Below are positions 5,074-20,106 of a stretch of DNA of 35,651 nt, one piece after another (position 1 is the first letter of the stretch; each line of letters opens with the position of its first letter). The position numbers were made by a program, and so were the translations under genes. The stretch lies in the IMG/VR virus record IMGVR_UViG_2654587746_000005. One strand, given 5' to 3'. The notes beneath the pieces were generated by a model that saw nothing but the letters and a program-made list of their open reading frames with translations, did no database searches and had not been told where the DNA came from. Source of the stretch: a virus. Lineage: Duplodnaviria; Heunggongvirae; Uroviricota; Caudoviricetes.

Positions 5074-5274
5074 ATGACTAAAGAAGAATTTGTCTCTTAT
5101 ATTTTTGATAAAACGGTTGAAATGTATGCCGCTACTTACGGGTCCTGTAATCCTCTGAATAAACCAGAGGGGAAAGATGATTTCGACAAAATTTACCGCT
5201 TCTTGGAGGACCGCTATATCAAAAGGTTAGAGGACGCAGGGATCAAATCCCCAGTGAAGTCACCATTGTCCTGA
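5074..5274 (+). CDS. Small hypothetical protein (66 aa), opposite in orientation to the surrounding early-left operon
   Basis: ATG preceded by a good RBS (AAGGAA, 7-8 nt upstream). It converges on and slightly overlaps the 3' end of the minus-strand ORF 5243..5620. No family recognised. Confidence 0.25.
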   Translation: MTKEEFVSYIFDKTVEMYAATYGSCNPLNKPEGKDDFDKIYRFLEDRYIKRLEDAGIKSPVKSPLS

Positions 5275-5620
5275 GAACTTGCAGGACGTCATGATCGTAA
5301 CTTCCATCCAAACCGCGACGGCAAATTGCTTCTCGTATTACCGGAAGCAGTTCGCTGGAAATCTCGGTGCATATTTCACCTGATAATACGCCTGGCTCAA
5401 GTGAGAATATTGGTGAACTTACGGTCTTGGTCTCGACAGTTTCAGAGTCAGTGCCAACATTATAAAGCTCAACGAAAGCGGTCTTGATTTTCCGGGCCAG
5501 ATCTTTTGCTGGCTCGCTTGCAATATCTTTCCCGATTTCTCGCAGCACAGAATGCAATGTATGAGCTGCTGTTTTCTGTACATCAGACGGTAAATCTTTA
5601 AATTCCATCGTCAGCCTCAT
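5243..5620 (-). CDS. Hypothetical early-left operon protein (about 121-125 aa)
   Basis: ORF in operon position between the ydfA-like gene and dicF. Start is ambiguous (5620 or 5608). No recognisable motif. Confidence 0.4.
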   Translation of the reverse strand: MRLTMEFKDLPSDVQKTAAHTLHSVLREIGKDIASEPAKDLARKIKTAFVELYNVGTDSETVETKTVSSPIFSLEPGVLSGEICTEISSELLPVIREAICRRGLDGSYDHDVLQVLRTMVTSLGI

Positions 5621-5772
5621 CAGTCAGTGTTTCTGGCTAACCAGCAACGCGCGCCAGATTCGGTTTTAAACGTTTTGCTTTTGGTATATGTCATCGCGGT
5701 GAACGTACCGTCCTGGTTGGGGAACACGCCACATACCAGAGATTCGCTGTTGCCAAGATCGATAGTATCCAT
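5620..5772 (-). CDS. ydfA: YdfA-like small protein (DUF1391-like, about 50 aa)
   Basis: Internal-ATG product MDTIDLGNSESLVCGVFPNQDGTFTAMTYTKSKTFKTESGARCWLARNTD resembles recalled Qin YdfA. It is the first gene downstream of dicA on the same strand. Confidence 0.55.
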   Translation of the reverse strand: MDTIDLGNSESLVCGVFPNQDGTFTAMTYTKSKTFKTESGARCWLARNTD

Positions 5773-5882
5773 GCTGACCTCATTTCCCCTTAACGCCGGG
5801 GTCGCGGAACTGTTTGCTGAGAACACCGTGCGGTGTCTTGATGGAAAGTAATTTAGAATAACCTAACATGAGAGGCAAGTGT

Positions 5883-5908
5883 TTTTTGTTAGATTAATCT
5901 AACAAAAA
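5883..5908. promoter_or_regulatory. Perfect 26-bp palindrome (TTTTTGTTAGATT|AATCTAACAAAAA), putative DicA-type operator at the dicB-operon promoter
   Basis: Read directly from the sequence. It shares the TGTTAGA/TCTAACA half-sites with the palindrome in the dicA-dicC intergenic region. It lies between dicA and the ydfA-like gene. Confidence 0.5.
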
Positions 5909-5940
5909 GGGTGGGCGCAACTAATCACTTGAAAAGAATG

Positions 5941-6348
5941 TTATTTTATTGATTTATTTTTACGCGCTTTAAGCATTTCTTCGAAGAGTTTGTTGAAGTT
6001 TTCTACTCTTGCGCGCATTTCAGACAGCAAGGCTTCCTGCTCGGAAGATGGAAGAGCATCGAATAATTCGATCAATTCTTTGTGGTTGGGAGTTAGCTCT
6101 GTTTCCACATGAAGTTCTTGTGCAGGCACTGGTGCCTTGTCTTCGTCACCAAACATTAGCCATGTAGGTGAGCACTTCAGAGCATCCGCTAAAGCAAACA
6201 ATCGTTTTCCGACTGGCTGGGTTTCGTCTCTTTCCCATTGTGAAATTGTGACGTGAGCAACTCCAGCGAGGCGCGCAGCTTCTCGTTGTGTTAAGCGTAA
6301 TTCTTTTCGTCGCGCCAGAACTCGCTGGCCTAGGGTTCTTGTATCCAT
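5941..6348 (-). CDS. dicA: HTH-type repressor DicA (cI/c2-like immunity repressor, 135 aa)
   Basis: 135-aa ORF with an N-terminal XRE-type HTH (LRLTQREAARLAGVAHVTISQWERDE). It is divergent from a Cro-like gene, and the sequence resembles recalled DicA. Confidence 0.8.
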   Translation of the reverse strand: MDTRTLGQRVLARRKELRLTQREAARLAGVAHVTISQWERDETQPVGKRLFALADALKCSPTWLMFGDEDKAPVPAQELHVETELTPNHKELIELFDALPSSEQEALLSEMRARVENFNKLFEEMLKARKNKSIK

Positions 6349-6370
6349 AGTTAGGTAATTCTAATTTTTC

Positions 6371-6415
6371 TTGACTTAGGTATCCCGCGCACAATAATGT
6401 TAGAAAAATCTAACA
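6371..6415 (+). promoter_or_regulatory. Putative dicC promoter (-35 TTGACT, 17-bp spacer, -10 ATAATG) overlapping operator inverted repeat TGTTAGA-N4-TCTAACA
   Basis: Read directly from the sequence in the dicA-dicC divergent intergenic region. The inverted repeat at 6398..6415 overlaps the -10 element. Confidence 0.45.
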
Positions 6416-6428
6416 AGAGGGGGCTTTG

Positions 6429-6656
6429 ATGCTTAAAGTTGACGCAATTACTTTTTTTGGCAGCAAAACAAAGCTTGCCAATGCCGCAGGAGTGAGACTG
6501 GCAAGTGTTGCTGCTTGGGGGATACTGGTTCCTGAAGGTCGCGCGATGCGTCTACAGGAGGCATCTGGCGGGGAGCTTCAGTATGATCCCAAAGTTTATG
6601 ACGAATATCGTAAGACGAAGCGGGCGGGGCGGTTGAACAATGAAAATCACTCCTGA
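6429..6656 (+). CDS. dicC: Cro-like regulator DicC
   Basis: About 75-aa ORF divergent from dicA, with an RBS (AGAGGGGG) upstream. The sequence (LKVDAITFFGSKTKLANAAGVRLASVAAW...) is consistent with a Cro/DicC-type small HTH protein. Confidence 0.7.
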   Translation: MLKVDAITFFGSKTKLANAAGVRLASVAAWGILVPEGRAMRLQEASGGELQYDPKVYDEYRKTKRAGRLNNENHS

Positions 6657-7161
6657 ACAGGCTCGTGAGGCTCTGGATGCCTGGATATGTCGACCAGGAA
6701 TGACACAGGAGCAGGCGACGATATTAATCACTGAAGCATTCTGGGCTTTGAAAGAGCGCCCGAACATCGATGTTCAGCGTGTCACATATGAAGGTGGCGC
6801 GGTTGATCAGCGAGCGCTTAGCGTTAATCGAGTGAAGATATTCGAACGCTGGAAGGCTATCGACACCAGGGATAAGCGTGAAAAGTTCACAGCGCTAGTG
6901 CCTGCAATTATGGAGGCTATCCGGATTAGTGATTTCAGGTTGTATCGTGAGATCAGTGATGGAAAAAGTATTACGTACATGATCGCCGGGTTAAATAAAG
7001 AATATGGCGATGTGGTGGAATCCGGACTGCTTTTTGCAGATCCTGCCGTTGTAGATCGTGAAACTGACGAACTTATAGAAAAAGCAATTGCTTTCAAGCT
7101 TGCGTATCGACAGCAATACCAACAAAAAGCTGGATGGAATTATGAGTCTTCTTTTTGCTGA
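6640..7161 (+). CDS. YdaT-like / CII-like phage regulatory protein (173 aa)
   Basis: ORF immediately after, and overlapping, the Cro-like gene. This position and the N-terminal pattern are typical of YdaT-family proteins; the family call is from recall and uncertain. Confidence 0.4.
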   Translation: MKITPEQAREALDAWICRPGMTQEQATILITEAFWALKERPNIDVQRVTYEGGAVDQRALSVNRVKIFERWKAIDTRDKREKFTALVPAIMEAIRISDFRLYREISDGKSITYMIAGLNKEYGDVVESGLLFADPAVVDRETDELIEKAIAFKLAYRQQYQQKAGWNYESSFC

Positions 7162-8107
7162 ACGCCCACTGGTTATAAACATGCAGCTGGCAATGAAAAT
7201 CGGCTTAAACGAAGCCATTGTTTTGCAACAACTGCACTACTGGTTGAGAGATACCAACTCCGGTATGGAATGTGATGGTGTTCGCTGGATTTATAACACA
7301 ACGGAACAATGGCTGGAACAGTTCCCATTCTGGTCAGAGTCAACGTTAAAGCGCGCGTTTGCAAGTCTGAAAACGCTGGGGCTTTTGCGTTGTGAAAAGC
7401 TCAATAAATCAAAGCGCGATATGACCAATTTCTACACGATCAACTATGGGAGCGAGCTTTTAGATGGTGGCAAATTGAACGAATCCATCGGTTCAAAATG
7501 CGCCGCTCCATCAGGTCAAAATGACACGATGGAAGAGGTCAAAATGAAACGCTCCATTGGTTCAAAACGATCCAATGTCATCGGGTCAAAATGGCCTGAT
7601 GATCTTACAGAGAATACAACAGAGATTACTACAGAGAATAAAAACACTTTTCGTCCGGAAGCTTCGCAACCGGACCCGCAGACGACTGAACAGGATTTTT
7701 TAACCTGGAACTCCGACGCGGTTGTGTTTAGTGCGAAAAAACGCCAGTGGGGTAGCAGGGAGGATTTGGCGTGTGCGCAGTGGATCTGGGGGCGGATCGT
7801 GGGTCTCTACGAACAGGCAGCCAGTGATGATGGCGAGATCATGCGACCAAAAGAGCCTAACTGGACTGCCTGGGCCAATGACGTGCGCACAATGCGGATG
7901 CTGGATGGCAGAAGCCACAGACAAATTTGCGAAATGTTTGGTCGGGTTCAGCGAGATCCATTCTGGGTAAAAAACATCATGAGCCCGTCAAAGCTCCGCG
8001 AAAAATGGGACGAACTGGTCATCCGCCTGGGACGTTCACCTGTACAGCGTTGTGTTAATCATATTTCTGAACCGGATACAGAAATTCCGCCTGGTTTCAG
8101 AGGATAA
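7142..8107 (+). CDS. Phage replication initiator / replisome organizer (O-like), ori embedded
   Basis: About 321 aa from the internal ATG (MSLLFAERPLVINMQLAMKIGLNEAIVLQQLHYW...), a typical replisome-organizer N-terminus. The gene contains DNA iterons that encode repeated IGSK peptides. Confidence 0.7.
   Translation: MSLLFAERPLVINMQLAMKIGLNEAIVLQQLHYWLRDTNSGMECDGVRWIYNTTEQWLEQFPFWSESTLKRAFASLKTLGLLRCEKLNKSKRDMTNFYTINYGSELLDGGKLNESIGSKCAAPSGQNDTMEEVKMKRSIGSKRSNVIGSKWPDDLTENTTEITTENKNTFRPEASQPDPQTTEQDFLTWNSDAVVFSAKKRQWGSREDLACAQWIWGRIVGLYEQAASDDGEIMRPKEPNWTAWANDVRTMRMLDGRSHRQICEMFGRVQRDPFWVKNIMSPSKLREKWDELVIRLGRSPVQRCVNHISEPDTEIPPGFRG
7485..7600 (+). repeat. Five direct iterons (consensus CAT-C-GGT(T)CAAAATG, period about 23 bp) followed by ACAGAGA(A/T)T repeats: putative phage origin of replication
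   Basis: Repeats read directly at about 7490, 7514, 7537, 7559 and 7583, inside the replication gene. This is analogous to lambda ori iterons inside gene O. Confidence 0.55.
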
Positions 8108-8147
8108 GTGTTGATTTCAGGTCATGAGGTAATTTTAAGGGGGAGTT

Positions 8148-8570
8148 GTGGCAAAAGTTTTTACACAAGAAGAGCGGGAAAAAATTAAAGGGCAGGTGGT
8201 GGAACTCGTGCGCCAGAGCGGTCGTGAGACGTTACGGCAACTGGAAGCTAAAACAGGTGCGACTAGATATCTGATGAGCGTTCTTGCCAGAGAGCTGGTA
8301 GCCAGTGGCGATGTATACAACTCCGGCTACGGGTTATTCCCGTCTGAACAGGCGCGTAAGGACTGGCAAAACGCCCGCAAAAAACTCTCGAGGGCAAAGG
8401 TGAAGAAACCTGCTGTGGTTGATCCGGACCTTATCTGGTCATTACCTGATGGAGAAATACGCCGCTACGACAGTCGTCTAAACATAATCTGTCGCGAGTG
8501 CCGGAAGAGCGAAGTTATGCAGCGTGTTCTGACGTTTTATCAGGGGAATTATCGGGAGGTGATGCTGTGA
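8148..8570 (+). CDS. Hypothetical protein (140 aa, GTG start) downstream of the replication initiator
   Basis: ORF in the position where a helicase loader (P/DnaC-like) would be expected, but it is too short and has no Walker motifs. No family recognised. Confidence 0.4.
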   Translation: MAKVFTQEEREKIKGQVVELVRQSGRETLRQLEAKTGATRYLMSVLARELVASGDVYNSGYGLFPSEQARKDWQNARKKLSRAKVKKPAVVDPDLIWSLPDGEIRRYDSRLNIICRECRKSEVMQRVLTFYQGNYREVML

Positions 8571-8800
8571 GTACATCGGCTACCATTCTCGACATGTGCT
8601 GTGGCAGTCGCATGCTCTGGTTCGATAAGAATGACGAATGGTCGATATTTAGCGATATCAGGAAAGAGGAACATTCGCTATGTGATGGACGTCACCCGAT
8701 TATTAATCCCGACATTATCGCTGATTTTCGTGCGCTGCCGTGGTTGTCTGCTTTGCATCAAAAGCAGACATTACCAGATTTAGACATCTGTTTCCGATAG
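8567..8800 (+). CDS. Short ORF with SAM-methyltransferase motif-I-like N-terminus (ILDMCCGS...), possibly a truncated methyltransferase remnant
   Basis: About 77 codons from a GTG. It carries a hh-D-h-x-C-G-S glycine-loop-like signature but lacks the rest of an MTase fold. Weak call. Confidence 0.25.
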
Positions 8801-8832
8801 CCCGTTCTGATGCTACACTTTTTGCTATTTTC

Positions 8833-9519
8833 ATGAACCTCATAAACACATTTATGACTGTTGCTGATTTCAAACGCCCCAAATTGGAGCTCCCAAACGG
8901 GGCAAAAAAACTATTACTGCACTCTTGCTGTGCTCCATGTTCCGGTGAAGTGATGGAGGCGCTTCAGGCCTCGGGAATCGACTACACCATCTTTTTCTAC
9001 AACCCGAACATTCATCCTCAGAAAGAGTATTTAATTCGTAAGGATGAGAATATTCGCTTTGCTAAACAACACGGCGTGCCATTTATTGATGCTGATTACG
9101 ACACAGACAACTGGTTTGAGCGAGCCAAAGGAATGGAATGGGAGCCTGAACGAGGGATCCGTTGTACCATGTGTTTTGACATGCGTTTTGAGCGGACTGC
9201 GCTGTATGCCGCTGAAAATGGTTTCAGTGTGATCAGTAGCTCACTGGGCATTTCACGCTGGAAAAATATGCAGCAGGTTAACGACTGTGGACGGCGAGCC
9301 GTCGCGTATTATCCGGGCATGGTGTACTGGGATTATAACTGGCGAAAGCAGGGCGGCTCTTCCCGCATGATTGAAATCAGCAAGCGCGAACAATTCTATC
9401 AGCAGGAATATTGTGGCTGCGTGTATTCACTGCGCGATACCAATCTACACCGCAAATCTCAGGGACGCCCTCTAATCAAAATTGGTCAACTCCACTACGG
9501 TAAAGAAGGCCAGGAATGA
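8833..9519 (+). CDS. queH: QueH-like (DUF208) Fe-S protein, putative epoxyqueuosine reductase
   Basis: Conserved cysteine motifs are present: [15 protein letters not shown] and YCGC, in a protein of about 220 aa. The start is ambiguous (ATG 8833 or 8863). Confidence 0.7.
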
Positions 9520-9597
9520 TTTTATATTATGCCAACGGAGCGTAGCAGTGTTTCTATATATAGTACGCCTACCTTAATTTTCAAATAATCATGATTA

Positions 9598-9634
9598 ATG
9601 AGCAGGTCATCAGTGCAAGCAATGACCTGCTCAT
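9598..9634 (+). terminator. Strong 13-bp perfect hairpin (ATGAGCAGGTCAT-loop-ATGACCTGCTCAT) downstream of the queH-like gene
   Basis: Read directly from the sequence. The T-tract is weak, so it may be a terminator, an RNA processing site or a regulatory hairpin. Confidence 0.4.
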
Positions 9635-10074
9635 CTTGTTGAAATTAGAGGAAATCTTGCAGCCATGATATGGCTTAAAATAACGTTTGATTATTTTACC
9701 TGCTGTTTGTCCCTGGTTTAAAGTCGGTTGTCTGATTTGATTACGCGCAACTGACGCTTACGTATTGAAGTAACGAGCACGAAGACACATATTTATCAGT
9801 GCCTGTATACGTCAAGAGCAGGAGATTTATGTGCTGGTTCTCAAATGCACGCTGGCTATTGTGGCTGTAATGGCAATTTATTGTCTTGTTATTGTTCTTA
9901 TGGATCACCTTTCTGATTGATTTCATATTGGAGAGGTAACGGTAGTTAAGTAGAATGGCTGCGGGTGCTTGAGGCTATCTGCCTCGGGCATGAACACCAA
10001 CGGCAGATAGAGAAAAGCCCCAGTTAACATTACGCGTCCTGCAAGACGCTTAACATTAATCTGAGGCCAATTTC

Positions 10075-10287
10075 ATGCTAGACACATGTAGGTTAGCCTC
10101 TTACGTGCCGAAAGGCAAGGAGAAGCAGGCTATGAAGCAGCAAAAGGCGATGTTAATCGCCCTGATCGTCATCTGTTTAACCGTCATAGTGACGGCACTG
10201 GTAACGAGGAAAGACCTCTGCGAGGTACGAATCCGAACCGGCCAGACGGAGGTCGCTGTCTTCACAGCTTACGAACCTGAGGAGTAA
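10075..10287 (+). CDS. mok: Mok-like in-frame leader ORF of the hok locus
   Basis: 70-aa ORF that is an in-frame N-terminal extension of hok, as recalled for chromosomal mokC/hokC. Confidence 0.55.
   Translation: MLDTCRLASYVPKGKEKQAMKQQKAMLIALIVICLTVIVTALVTRKDLCEVRIRTGQTEVAVFTAYEPEE
10132..10287 (+). CDS. hok: Hok/Gef-family type I toxin (51 aa)
   Basis: MKQQKAMLIALIVICLTVIVTALVTRKDLCEVRIRTGQTEVAVFTAYEPEE matches recalled HokD/RelF. It is followed by an intrinsic terminator. Confidence 0.85.
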   Translation: MKQQKAMLIALIVICLTVIVTALVTRKDLCEVRIRTGQTEVAVFTAYEPEE

Positions 10288-12701: not shown

Positions 12702-13226
12702 TTATTGTTTAACCCATAATAGTTCATTGACATTGAATCCCAACTTTTGAGCGGTACGCACATAGTCTGCTTTTACATTATCTGGAATAGTTTGGGTCCT
12801 TGCCAGAATCCATAGGTATTCTCTGTTCGGACCACTGACAAGAGCATACTTATACTCATCATCCAGTTTGATTACATTATAGCCACCATAGAAGGGGCCA
12901 AAAAACGAAACTTTCAACGCTGCAGTTTTAGTATCTCCAGTAAAGTATGCTTTACCTTCGCTCTCGCTCCATTTGTTTTTCGTTGGATCGTATCCACGGT
13001 TAAGTACGCGAATCCCTCCGTCGTTCCGTTTTTCATAAGTAGCGCTGACCTGTTCCAGACCACGTTCGAACCAGTTCTCGAGGCGAGCTATTTCATACCA
13101 TTTTCCGAGGTAGCGGTTGGCGTCAAAATTTGTAATCGGCTGCACACCTTTAGGTGGTGTCGGGGCCTTACATGCTATAAGAGTGAAAGAGAGTGCAATG
13201 CCAGTCAACACAGGCCATAACTTCAT
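12702..13226 (-). CDS. Blc-like outer-membrane lipocalin lipoprotein
   Basis: 174 aa with a signal peptide and lipobox (LIAC). Lipocalin motifs NFDANRYLGKWYEIAR and KVSFFGPFYGGYNVI closely resemble recalled E. coli Blc. The gene is on the opposite strand to the late operon. Confidence 0.8.
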   Translation of the reverse strand: MKLWPVLTGIALSFTLIACKAPTPPKGVQPITNFDANRYLGKWYEIARLENWFERGLEQVSATYEKRNDGGIRVLNRGYDPTKNKWSESEGKAYFTGDTKTAALKVSFFGPFYGGYNVIKLDDEYKYALVSGPNREYLWILARTQTIPDNVKADYVRTAQKLGFNVNELLWVKQ

Positions 13227-13418: not shown

Positions 13419-14378
13419 ATGATAAAAAAACCTGTGATTGGGATCAGCGGTTGTTTGGGCGGTTCTGCTGTTCGTTTTGATGGTGGTCACAAAAGAGATG
13501 ACTTTTTAATGGACAAATTAGTGGAATGGGTAACATTCAGACCAGTATGTCCGGAAATGGCTATAGGGCTGCCAGTTCCGCGTCCTGCTCTACGACTTGT
13601 GCGCTCGAAGCAAGGAAATATACGGATGTGTTTCAGCCACGACCAGAATGAGGATGTGACAGAGAGAATGACAGAGTTTAGTCGTTCTTATATGGACAAA
13701 TTAAAGGATGTATCGGGGTTTGTGGTTTGTGCTAAATCTCCCAGCTGTGGCATGGAGCGCGTGCGTGTCTATGATGAAAATGGTAATCGAGGTCGTAAAG
13801 ATGGAGTGGGACTATTTACGAGCACTTTGATGGAAAAGTTTTCCTGGCTACCGGTTGAAGAGGATGGGCGATTACATGATCCAGTGCTTCGTGAGAATTT
13901 TATTGAAAGAGTTTTTGCTTTGCATGAGCTCAATCACCTTTACAAGGAGAAATTATCAAGAAGAGAGTTATTAGCTTTTCATAGTCGTTATAAGCTTCAG
14001 TTGTTGGCGCATAGCCAGGCAGGCTATAAAGATATGGGACCATTTGTGGCTGCAATACACGAGTGGGCGGACCTTGAATCATACTTTGAGGTGTATCGTG
14101 ATAATCTGATGGCGATTCTCAGAAAACCAGCATCACGTAAAAATCACACGAATGTGCTGATGCATATACAGGGGTATTTTAGTAATTACTTAAGTACACG
14201 CCAGCGTAAAGAGTTGAGCGAGGTTATACTTAACTATCGCTTTGGCACATTGCCTCTTCTTGCGCCGTTGACTCTGCTGAAGCATTATCTGGGTGAGTAT
14301 CCTAATGATTACTTGCTTACACAGAACTACTTCGATCCCTATCCGGAAGAACTGGCTCTAAGACTGATGGTGAATTAA
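13419..14378 (+). CDS. Two-domain protein: N-terminal DUF523/TudS-like [4Fe-4S] domain fused to C-terminal DUF1722/YbgA-like domain
   Basis: TudS-type motifs are present: GISGCLGG, PVCPEMAIGLP and AKSPSCGM (three Cys plus Glu/Ser). The C-terminal half resembles YbgA. RBS AGGGGGAGG is upstream. Confidence 0.7.
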   Translation: MIKKPVIGISGCLGGSAVRFDGGHKRDDFLMDKLVEWVTFRPVCPEMAIGLPVPRPALRLVRSKQGNIRMCFSHDQNEDVTERMTEFSRSYMDKLKDVSGFVVCAKSPSCGMERVRVYDENGNRGRKDGVGLFTSTLMEKFSWLPVEEDGRLHDPVLRENFIERVFALHELNHLYKEKLSRRELLAFHSRYKLQLLAHSQAGYKDMGPFVAAIHEWADLESYFEVYRDNLMAILRKPASRKNHTNVLMHIQGYFSNYLSTRQRKELSEVILNYRFGTLPLLAPLTLLKHYLGEYPNDYLLTQNYFDPYPEELALRLMVN

Positions 14379-14784
14379 CTGTATGCGATATCATCTGAAA
14401 GTGATGAGTTCCTGTATGCAGGATATTTACAATCGTAAAAACTACGCTATGATGCTCATAGTGTCAGTTTTTATAAAAATCCTGTTCACGCTAAAGAAGA
14501 CATTGAGATGCAATTTAATGTTGGTAAACATACCAGCCCCAAAAGATTTTATTCAATCTGTTTTTATATGAAGATATTTCAAGTGAATATTAAGAGCATA
14601 TAATATTATTATTGCACGCAGCTATTATAATATAACAGATTAGTTTAATGATTTGTTTTTTGTGAGTTAAACACATGGTTTTATAGTTGTGATGCAATGA
14701 GATTTTCCTTATTGTTGAACTGGCGAATATTGATTTTCCACCTATACTTACCTGGTGTAACCCCAATGATATCAGGTGGATAAT

Positions 14785-15498
14785 ATGCCATACATATGTT
14801 CTATCATTTTGGTGTTGAACTCGTTTGGTGTCCGAATTGGTAAAGAAGATATTTTGTTTAAAAAAGGAAATGCTGTCCTCATTGAATACAATTTAAAAGA
14901 TCTTTTTTCGTCAAATACAGATCATCTAATGATCGTAGATGTTGAGGAGAAAACAGTTAATGATTTCTTTAAAAACTACACACTCTCACCTTTTTCTGTA
15001 AGAAGGTTTTATCCGTCATACTTGATAGTAGAATGTGAAGATTTTTCATTGTTAAAGAACTTGGTTGCATGCTTGAATTGTGATAGCAAAACCGTGGATG
15101 TAGTTAGAAATCAAATATCACTTGCATGTCTTGCTGTCTTATCTTCAGAGAAAATAGTGCAAAGTTTTTTGTTCGGAAGTCTTAATAGCTTAGGTTGTAA
15201 AGTTAAGGCTATTATTCACTCGGATATCTCTGCGTCATGGAGACTTTGTGATATATCTTCAAGATTATATATGAGCGAGAGTTTGTTAAAAAGAAAATTA
15301 AAAGACGAAGGATTATCGTTTAGTAAATTAATTCTTGAAGAACGAATGATGATGGCGCAAAGATTATTGATCTACAGTAACCATACTGTCGGCAAGGTGG
15401 CGGGAATATGCGGGTATGACAATGCATCATATTTTGTAAGTGTTTTTAGAGGATATTTTGGTGTGCCTCCGCACCAATATTTATCAAGATTTTCTTAG
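14785..15498 (+). CDS. AraC/XylS-family transcriptional regulator (AppY-like)
   Basis: Very AT-rich gene. The C-terminus has the AraC double HTH (…SESLLKRKLKDEGLSFSKL…GYDNASYFVSVFRGYFGVPPHQY). The N-terminus and overall layout resemble recalled prophage regulator AppY. Confidence 0.8.
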   Translation: MPYICSIILVLNSFGVRIGKEDILFKKGNAVLIEYNLKDLFSSNTDHLMIVDVEEKTVNDFFKNYTLSPFSVRRFYPSYLIVECEDFSLLKNLVACLNCDSKTVDVVRNQISLACLAVLSSEKIVQSFLFGSLNSLGCKVKAIIHSDISASWRLCDISSRLYMSESLLKRKLKDEGLSFSKLILEERMMMAQRLLIYSNHTVGKVAGICGYDNASYFVSVFRGYFGVPPHQYLSRFS

Positions 15499-18936: not shown

Positions 18937-20106
18937 ATGTTAAGAGCAACAAAAGTACGCATCTACCCGACACCAGAACAGGCTGAATTTATCAACGCCC
19001 AGTTCGGTGCAGTGCGTTTTGCGTACAACAAAGCTCTGCATATCAAGAAACATTCTTACCAGCGGCACCGCGTAAATTTAAACCCGCGTAAAGACCTCAA
19101 ACCACTGCTTGCAGTGGCGAAGAAATCCCGCCGGTATGGATGGCTTAAAGAATATGATTCTATTGCGTTGCAGCAGGCGGTAATTAACCTCGACGTGGCT
19201 TTTTCTAACTTTTTCAATCCGAAACTGAAAGCAGGTAAACCTACCTTTAAAAGTAAACACGGCAGACAATCGAGCTATCATTGTGTTGGCATAAAAGTCC
19301 TTGATGGTGCGATAAAAATACCGAAAATCTTGCCGATTGAAGCGCGTTTACATCGTGAAATTACGGGAATGCTGAAAAGTATCACGTTGAGCCGCAGCGC
19401 AACCGGGAAATACTACGCGTCGTTACTCTGTGACGACGGGATGGAAGCGCCGGCAAAGCCCGCACTGATATCAAATGTGACAGGGCTGGATATGGGGCTG
19501 GCGCATTTTGTCATCAAATCGGACGGCAATAAAATTGCCAGTCCCCGCCACCTAATCAATGCAAGTCGCAACCTGCGCCGGAAGCAGAAAGCACTGTCCC
19601 GTAAGAAAAAAGGGAGCGCAAACAGGCGCAAAGCCAGAATACAACTTGCAGCCGTTCACGAACGGGTAGCCAGTGCCCGTGCCGATTTCCAGCACAAGTT
19701 ATCTCGCGCAATTGTTGACGAAAACCAAGCGGTAATTGTCGAGACATTGAAAACGGCAAATATGATGAAAAATCACCATCTGGCTCGTGCGATAGGCGAT
19801 GCTGGATGGTCTGGATTCATCACAAAACTGGAATACAAAGCAGCAGAGAAAGGTGTGCATCTGGTGAAACTGGATCAATGGTTCGCCAGTTCGAAAACCT
19901 GCCACTGCTGCGGTCACAAAATGTCGGAGATGCCATTACATAAGCGCATCTGGCAGTGTCCAGAGTGTGGAGTTGAACATGACCGCGATATCAACGCGGC
20001 GCTCAACATCAAACGCAAGGGCATACTGGAATTACAAGCGGCGGGACTCGTCGTTTCTGCCCATGGAGGCCAGCGTAAATCCGTCACACAGACGGTTGCG
20101 GCTTAA
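18937..20106 (+). CDS. tnpB: TnpB (OrfB) RuvC-like RNA-guided nuclease of IS605 family
   Basis: 389 aa with an N-terminal OrfB region, RuvC motifs and a C-terminal zinc finger (CHCCGHK...CPECGVEHDRDINAALNI). Confidence 0.85.
   Translation: MLRATKVRIYPTPEQAEFINAQFGAVRFAYNKALHIKKHSYQRHRVNLNPRKDLKPLLAVAKKSRRYGWLKEYDSIALQQAVINLDVAFSNFFNPKLKAGKPTFKSKHGRQSSYHCVGIKVLDGAIKIPKILPIEARLHREITGMLKSITLSRSATGKYYASLLCDDGMEAPAKPALISNVTGLDMGLAHFVIKSDGNKIASPRHLINASRNLRRKQKALSRKKKGSANRRKARIQLAAVHERVASARADFQHKLSRAIVDENQAVIVETLKTANMMKNHHLARAIGDAGWSGFITKLEYKAAEKGVHLVKLDQWFASSKTCHCCGHKMSEMPLHKRIWQCPECGVEHDRDINAALNIKRKGILELQAAGLVVSAHGGQRKSVTQTVAA

Follow-up and report, generated by a model that had tools for sequence, protein, structure and literature searches.

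A prophage-borne QueH in Escherichia coli as a predicted cobalamin-independent route to queuosine

Introduction

QueH is a non-orthologous replacement of QueG (YjeS), and both enzymes convert epoxyqueuosine (oQ) to queuosine (Q) on tRNA, acting on the same substrate (PMC5372724, PMC4646009). The oQ-to-Q step of QueG needs cobalamin, according to the part of PMC4646009 that cites Frey et al. 1988. QueG and QueH are unrelated in fold and in cofactor set, and QueG is dependent on B12 and [4Fe-4S]. E. coli cannot make B12 de novo, and in K-12 the last step of queuosine synthesis relies on B12 taken up from outside. Acinetobacter baylyi ADP1 is reported, in work attributed to Zallot et al. 2017, to be among the few organisms that have both QueG and QueH. 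The QueH of T. maritima (TmQueH) is available as solved structures (7lc5/7lc7), and close chromosomal relatives of the protein described here are found in Enterobacterales. Lambdoid prophages, for their part, carry moron cargo between the replication genes and the antiterminator gene Q, such as relBE-hokD in Qin of K-12 or a restriction-modification (R-M) system in O157, in the form of interchangeable, self-contained cassettes. A 2019 survey of phage 7-deazaguanine genes recorded no QueA, QueG or QueH homologues in the viruses analysed (PMC6884629), and our literature search found no paper on prophage-borne or E. coli B QueH.

Here we analysed a queH gene in the Caudoviricetes record IMGVR_UViG_2654587746_000005, the whole 35,651-nt stretch of which is called the window below. 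The prophage gene occupies the same replication-to-Q slot as the cargo mentioned above, but where that cargo consists of toxin, defence or virulence genes, it encodes a housekeeping enzyme of tRNA modification.

Results

The prophage ORF belongs to the QueH family

The gene was placed as follows.

8854..9519, + strand: queH coding sequence, 221 aa (Pfam, PDB and Foldseek matches; starts of orthologues and of the PGAP annotation)

An open frame without interruption runs on the + strand from the ATG at 8833 to the stop codon at 9517-9519. It had been described from the sequence as an ORF with the QueH cysteine signature, and the HSCCAPC, CxxC and YCGC motifs were indeed all found in the translation; what changed was the start, which is amended here to 8854. 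The alternative in-frame ATG at 8833 would give a protein of 228 aa, and nothing in the proteins of Erwinia and Providencia corresponds to the seven codons that it adds. Translation from the next ATG in frame, at 8854, yields a protein beginning with MTVADFKRP, and the orthologues of Erwinia, Scandinavium, Kluyvera and Enterobacter, as well as the PGAP annotation of REL606, start at the equivalent position. These comparisons suggest that ATG 8854 is likely the correct start of queH; a Shine-Dalgarno sequence was absent before this codon. A third, internal start recurs in existing records. PHROG 3217 (188 positions) begins at the Met at window position 8953, which is Met41 of the 228-aa reading and is preceded by a Shine-Dalgarno-like GGTGA, and the same start was used for a CDS named 'putative prophage protein' in an Acinetobacter record (6106-6675 of that locus). 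Starting there removes the HSCCAPC motif, and it looks like a recurrent miscall.

Assignment to the QueH family (DUF208, IPR003828) is well supported by profile, sequence and modelled structure. The preliminary description had proposed this family, and the profile search agreed, with a match to Pfam PF02677 at E 3e-65 and 220 bits (cut-off 23.5 bits) over profile positions 1-174 of 175. The sequence of TmQueH structure 7lc5 was matched at E 8e-22 over residues 27-203, with an identity of ~31%. An AlphaFold2 model built from 27 homologues had only moderate confidence (pLDDT 76, pTM 0.78), and its comparison with the PDB by Foldseek likewise pointed to T. maritima QueH: the best five matches were all TmQueH, with E ~1e-10 and TM scores of 0.65 (query) and 0.79 (target), and other enzymes of the adenine-nucleotide-alpha-hydrolase fold followed far lower. 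The prophage protein thus resembles TmQueH in fold, full-length profile, the six cysteines and the predicted reaction, oQ34 to Q34 on tRNA. It differs in having a C-terminal extension of 20-30 residues, in a substitution at Asp13 and in being encoded by a prophage.

All six cysteines that define the common pattern with TmQueH (CC...RCxxC...YCGC) were kept, with the prophage motifs aligning to C9/C10, the RCERC pair and the YCGC pair of TmQueH, and the cysteine motifs, including QQEYCGC, were invariant among 27 proteobacterial sequences. The position of TmQueH Asp13, the residue mutated by the depositors of PDB 9dco, holds no acidic residue in the prophage protein; it is a seventh cysteine (CCAPC). 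The same cysteine was seen in homologues from S. aureus, Listeria, Acinetobacter and gut metagenomes, so that the aspartate does not appear to define the family; CCAPC appears to be the usual form, and the aspartate particular to T. maritima. Since Asp13 is replaced, active-site details cannot simply be transferred from the solved structure.

Existing annotation of the protein is uneven. It had no match among the NCBIfam models, so the name QueH given to it by PGAP does not come from any NCBIfam model matching this protein. PHROG 3217 matches residues 41-228 (E 6e-135) under the label 'unknown function', and the copy in phage HannyBb is recorded as 'hypothetical protein', both of which are practical points for annotation.

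The gene lies in a cargo slot of a Qin/mEp460-type prophage

As a whole, the window represents a lambdoid, Qin/mEp460-type prophage. The integrase and exonuclease genes lie on the minus strand, and the plus strand carries, in order, genes for a cro-like protein, YdaT, an O-like protein, DUF977, QueH, hok/sok, rem, DUF968, antiterminator Q, lysis, terminase and tail. The prophage, nin-like setting that had been proposed was therefore correct, with queH located between the replication genes and the hok/sok-rem-DUF968-Q region. The immediate neighbours are listed below.

8148..8570, + strand: DUF977 gene, upstream neighbour (Pfam DUF977, E 5e-29)
8567..8752, + strand: methyltransferase remnant without its C-terminus, ending where the queH cassette begins (PGAP on REL606)
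9963..10287, + strand: hok/sok (hokD) toxin-antitoxin locus, downstream neighbour (Rfam sok RF01794, 115 bits, E 5.5e-27)

The DUF977 gene adjoined the cassette upstream in all six prophage contexts compared, among them those of REL606, HannyBb, ST131, O157:H7 and E. albertii, and hokD is annotated in REL606. Between DUF977 and queH, PGAP labels the identical stretch of REL606 'methyltransferase, incomplete, missing C-terminus', and the ORF at 8498-8800 had no Pfam match. Loss of the methyltransferase C-terminus at the cassette start suggests that insertion or replacement of the cassette destroyed the methyltransferase gene at 8567-8752.

Among isolated phages HannyBb is the nearest, with 98.9% identity to the window across 59% of its first 25 kb; this phage forms virions and carries queH at 99.3% identity. 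In other relatives the slot is filled differently. Genes flxA-ydfV-relBE fill it in Qin of K-12 MG1655 (locus coordinates 5120-6738), and in an O157:H7 prophage (Z1615, locus coordinates 7863-9873) genes for a Dcm-type methyltransferase and for a restriction endonuclease of the NgoMIV family come after queH. The presence of relBE in K-12 and of an R-M system in O157 at this site indicates that the queH slot is a cargo hot spot with interchangeable cassettes. The gene is also a moron in the sense of being located in a prophage and unneeded for phage functions, given that the related phage mEp460 had no megablast match to queH and that Qin of BL21(DE3) has it deleted.

queH travels as a cassette with a candidate promoter of its own

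Comparison of the two prophage allele types defined the cassette and two further features around the gene.

8739..9525, + strand: queH cassette, homology block of the two prophage allele types (blastn)
8811..8819, + strand: candidate extended -10 promoter element TGCTACACT (comparative conservation)
9598..9632, + strand: 13-bp hairpin with a weak U tract, possible terminator (RNA fold; 80 nt past the queH stop)

By blastn, 8739-9525 is 92.8-92.9% identical to the prophage loci of ST131, O157:H7 and E. albertii, and the flanks differ on both sides. A single homology block with unlike flanks suggests that queH travels as a cassette of ~790 bp.

Within it, TGCTACACT sits 34 nt upstream of ATG 8854, and all 80 of the IMG/VR prophage copies have this element. 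In a motif search anchored on the His codon of HSCCAPC, TGCTACACT, TGCTACAAT or TGCTATATT was found 105-110 nt upstream of that codon in the chromosomal queH genes of Erwinia, Scandinavium, Kluyvera, Enterobacter, Symbiopectobacterium and Acerihabitans, where the surrounding sequence is unrelated; the TGCTACA(C/A)T element was absent from the Providencia queH loci. The -35 region of this candidate promoter is poor, and a simple sigma-70 consensus scan called no promoter next to queH, TGCTACACT included. From the conservation of the element in otherwise unrelated surroundings, we infer that the phage captured queH together with its native extended -10 promoter.

Rfam identified no riboswitch (preQ1 or cobalamin) or other element upstream of queH, and only sok downstream. 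The terminator scan called none next to the gene, the hairpin at 9598-9632 included. As an integral terminator of the cassette this hairpin was rejected, because the ST131/O157-type allele does not have that segment. The segment in question, 372 bp at 9526-9897 between queH and hok/sok, is found in the window, REL606 and HannyBb and is absent from the allele of ST131, O157:H7 and E. albertii; a minus-strand ORF of 61 codons (9741-9926) overlaps its right end.

Chromosomal relatives in Enterobacterales

The prophage protein belongs to a highly conserved clade of proteobacterial QueH, with 75-92% identity to chromosomal copies across Proteobacteria, alphaproteobacterial sequences included. Chromosomal QueH proteins at 78-92% identity were found in Providencia, Photorhabdus, Serratia, Erwinia, Dickeya, Rahnella, Enterobacter, Kluyvera and Scandinavium, and those of Proteus reach 84-87% over ~91% of the protein. 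The nearest relatives outside Escherichia, from Scandinavium (92%), Kluyvera (90%) and Enterobacter (88-90%), lie in non-phage neighbourhoods. QueH of Erwinia (86%) is encoded in the order purL-queH-glrK homologue, and the gene for that of Providencia (85%) adjoins tmcA. The prophage neighbour DUF977 was seen at just one of the 80 genome loci recovered, that of E. albertii.

The chromosomal Enterobacterales proteins are nearly identical to the prophage protein and start at the same position, and the copies of Scandinavium, Kluyvera, Enterobacter and Erwinia share with it the upstream TGCTACA(C/A)T element. What sets the prophage gene apart is its flanks, DUF977 and hok/sok, as opposed to the non-phage contexts of the chromosomal copies. 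These relatives also qualify the premise that enterobacteria normally use QueG: it holds for REL606, which has QueG, but as a general statement it goes too far, given how widespread chromosomal QueH is among Enterobacterales.

queH is a common accessory gene of E. coli

By megablast, queH was found in 995 of 5426 complete E. coli genomes (~18%), at ≥99% identity in 72, at 95-99% in 113 and at 90-95% in 810, and the match spans at least 80% of the gene in 985 of the 995. Carriers include E. coli B (REL606), E. coli C, ATCC 8739, ST131 and O157:H7. Six contexts were inspected, five from E. coli and one from E. albertii, and in all of them, as in phage HannyBb, the gene occupied the same lambdoid slot; at least 188 IMG/VR viral contigs carry it. 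Among the matches listed, every row bore the PGAP name 'epoxyqueuosine reductase QueH'. Prophage queH is thus not new but a common, already-annotated accessory gene. The preliminary description had taken it for novel lambdoid cargo, a claim made to depend on such genes not being common and already annotated, and on its own terms that claim falls. The annotation is known, and it is the physiological effect of prophage queH that is apparently unpublished.

Several records outside this group were set aside as evidence for phage carriage. 'Acinetobacter phage MD-2021a' (CAKLQH020000001.1, 328 kb) resembles a bacterial chromosome; soxR, cynX, tadA and LysR and GntR regulators surround its queH. The Staphylococcus and Listeria 'phage' and fecal 'Bacteriophage sp.' contigs are unverified, unannotated records.

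Purifying selection on prophage copies and the E. coli B pair

We compared 80 IMG/VR prophage copies of the gene. The ORF was intact in all 80, and the 21 nucleotide alleles encode 6 protein variants. Polymorphic sites at codon positions 3, 1 and 2 numbered 50, 8 and 2, that is, 50 of 60 at the third position, and the median dN/dS was ~0.04. The two main prophage alleles differ from each other by 31.5 synonymous and 8.5 non-synonymous changes (dN/dS 0.06). Neighbouring genes have decayed in REL606 and BL21, in which the methyltransferase, DUF968 and exonuclease genes are truncated or frameshifted. With every copy intact and dN/dS low amid such neighbours, queH is under strong purifying selection in its prophage setting. 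The Qin prophage of REL606 is itself defective, with a frameshifted integrase and IS3 insertions that make lytic growth impossible.

The two E. coli B strains examined differ at this locus. REL606 keeps the segment 8445-9805 at 99.96% identity and has an identical queH together with an intact queG. In BL21(DE3) (NC_012971.2), queH is missing as the result of a clean deletion of 1,361 bp, equivalent to 8445-9805 of the window (locus position 6549/6550), which removes the 3' end of DUF977, the methyltransferase remnant, all of queH and ~290 bp downstream. We know of no consequence of this loss in BL21(DE3), and the gene is accordingly dispensable in the laboratory. REL606 (queH+) and BL21(DE3) (queH-) constitute a natural E. 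coli B pair for the prediction of B12 independence set out below.

Discussion

The sequence comparisons indicate that prophage queH is intact and its enzyme probably active, and the family membership, the cysteines, the prophage location and the presence of QueG in the host together make cobalamin-independent oQ-to-Q conversion by the prophage QueH a reasonable prediction. In the model that we favour, a lambdoid phage of the Qin/mEp460 type would have taken the single-gene queH cassette from an Enterobacteriaceae chromosome, and the captured cassette would have brought its own extended -10 promoter and been inserted in the cargo slot that follows the replication genes and precedes the hok/DUF968/Q region. 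With such a promoter, queH would probably be expressed both in the lysogen and upon induction. The product, a cobalamin-independent iron-sulfur enzyme, would reduce oQ34 to Q34 on tRNA-Tyr, -His, -Asn and -Asp, so that in a lysogen it would duplicate the B12-dependent QueG of the host and free the last step of queuosine synthesis from external B12. Taken as a whole, an active QueH on a captured cassette with its own promoter, expressed in lysogens as a second and B12-independent route beside QueG, is in our judgement quite likely. Such a cell would resemble A. baylyi ADP1 in holding both reductases, and an Acinetobacter QueH is 76.6% identical to the prophage protein; the second reductase of E. 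coli differs in being accessory and prophage-borne, present in the minority of complete genomes counted above, and not a species-wide chromosomal gene.

Three other explanations were weighed against this model. An active QueH might be expressed only from the early-right operon after induction and serve lytic growth, for example by supplying Q for NAU-rich late genes; queH would then be silent in the lysogen, and the argument from B12 independence would be void. The gene is co-oriented with cro, ydaT, the O-like gene and DUF977, with no terminator called between them, and NAU makes up 62% of NAY codons in the late genes as compared with 52% in a 42-gene host sample. The codon comparison had been suggested in the preliminary description, and the late genes did prove richer in NAU (0.62 versus 0.52), but the difference is small, is expected for AT-richer phage DNA and cannot be interpreted; to our knowledge, no decoding difference between oQ and Q has been described. 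Ideas about NAU/NAC decoding or anticodon nucleases are speculation. Two further observations argue against a purely lytic role, namely that the extended -10 element is common to chromosomal queH genes with no phage operon upstream, which points to autonomous transcription, and that purifying selection extends to defective prophages such as Qin of REL606, which are incapable of lytic growth. We regard a lytic-only function as unlikely.

The harmless loss of queH from BL21(DE3), as far as is known, would be expected if the gene were a neutral passenger, acquired by illegitimate recombination and hitch-hiking with successful prophages, and so would the presence of queG in the host and the interchangeability of the slot cargo (relBE in K-12, R-M in one O157 strain). 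A passenger would gather frameshifts and replacements, as the truncated methyltransferase, DUF968 and exonuclease neighbours have, whereas the 80 IMG/VR copies are all intact with a dN/dS of ~0.04 and a predominance of third-position changes, and nearly all of the E. coli matches (985 of 995) span at least 80% of the gene; this explanation is very improbable. Still less probable, and hardly to be credited, is a role outside tRNA maturation, either in processing 7-deazaguanine in phage DNA or in protecting against a defence system or anticodon nuclease that responds to the state of Q34. Phages do use other queuosine-pathway enzymes for DNA modification (PMC6884629), and defence-type cargo, namely an R-M system and toxin-antitoxin loci, occupies the slot in relatives. 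No DpdA/Tgt-like transglycosylase or preQ0-synthesis gene was present, however, in the annotated neighbourhoods and scanned ORFs, QueH was missing from the viruses of the same 2019 survey, and PADLOC reported no defence-system match for QueH, DUF977, DUF968, TudS or the lipocalin. Identity of 78-92% to housekeeping QueH, with the invariant residues kept, gives no sign of a new function.

The favoured model, a second B12-independent reductase expressed in lysogens, can be extended to a physiological role. Prophage queH may be a lysogenic-conversion gene that lifts the dependence of the E. coli queuosine pathway on environmental B12, with consequences for translation or fitness that could be measured in niches where B12 is scarce; on this point we are close to evenly divided and lean slightly against. 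If it were true, about one in five E. coli, including B/REL606, C, ATCC 8739, many ST131 and some O157:H7, would have fully mature Q-tRNA, and K-12 and BL21(DE3) would stall at epoxyqueuosine, so that common laboratory strains would differ in a way that has gone unrecognised. Four tRNAs would vary in their oQ/Q state from strain to strain, also between REL606 and BL21(DE3), and the locus would clearly exemplify phage cargo that encodes a housekeeping enzyme of tRNA modification.

The window holds other genes of interest beside queH. Just after the Q antiterminator gene lies an intact gene for a 319-aa fusion of TudS (PF04463) and DUF1722 (YbgA-like) at 13419-14378 (+); TudS is a 2-thiouracil desulfurase domain, which makes this the second gene for a nucleobase-related enzyme in the prophage, and it is split by IS3 in REL606 and BL21. 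Further non-phage cargo comprises a Blc-like lipocalin at 12702-13226 (-), an AraC-family regulator at 14776-15498 (+) and an IS605-type TnpB (OrfB_IS605 and Cas12f1-like TNB domain) at 18937-20106 (+).
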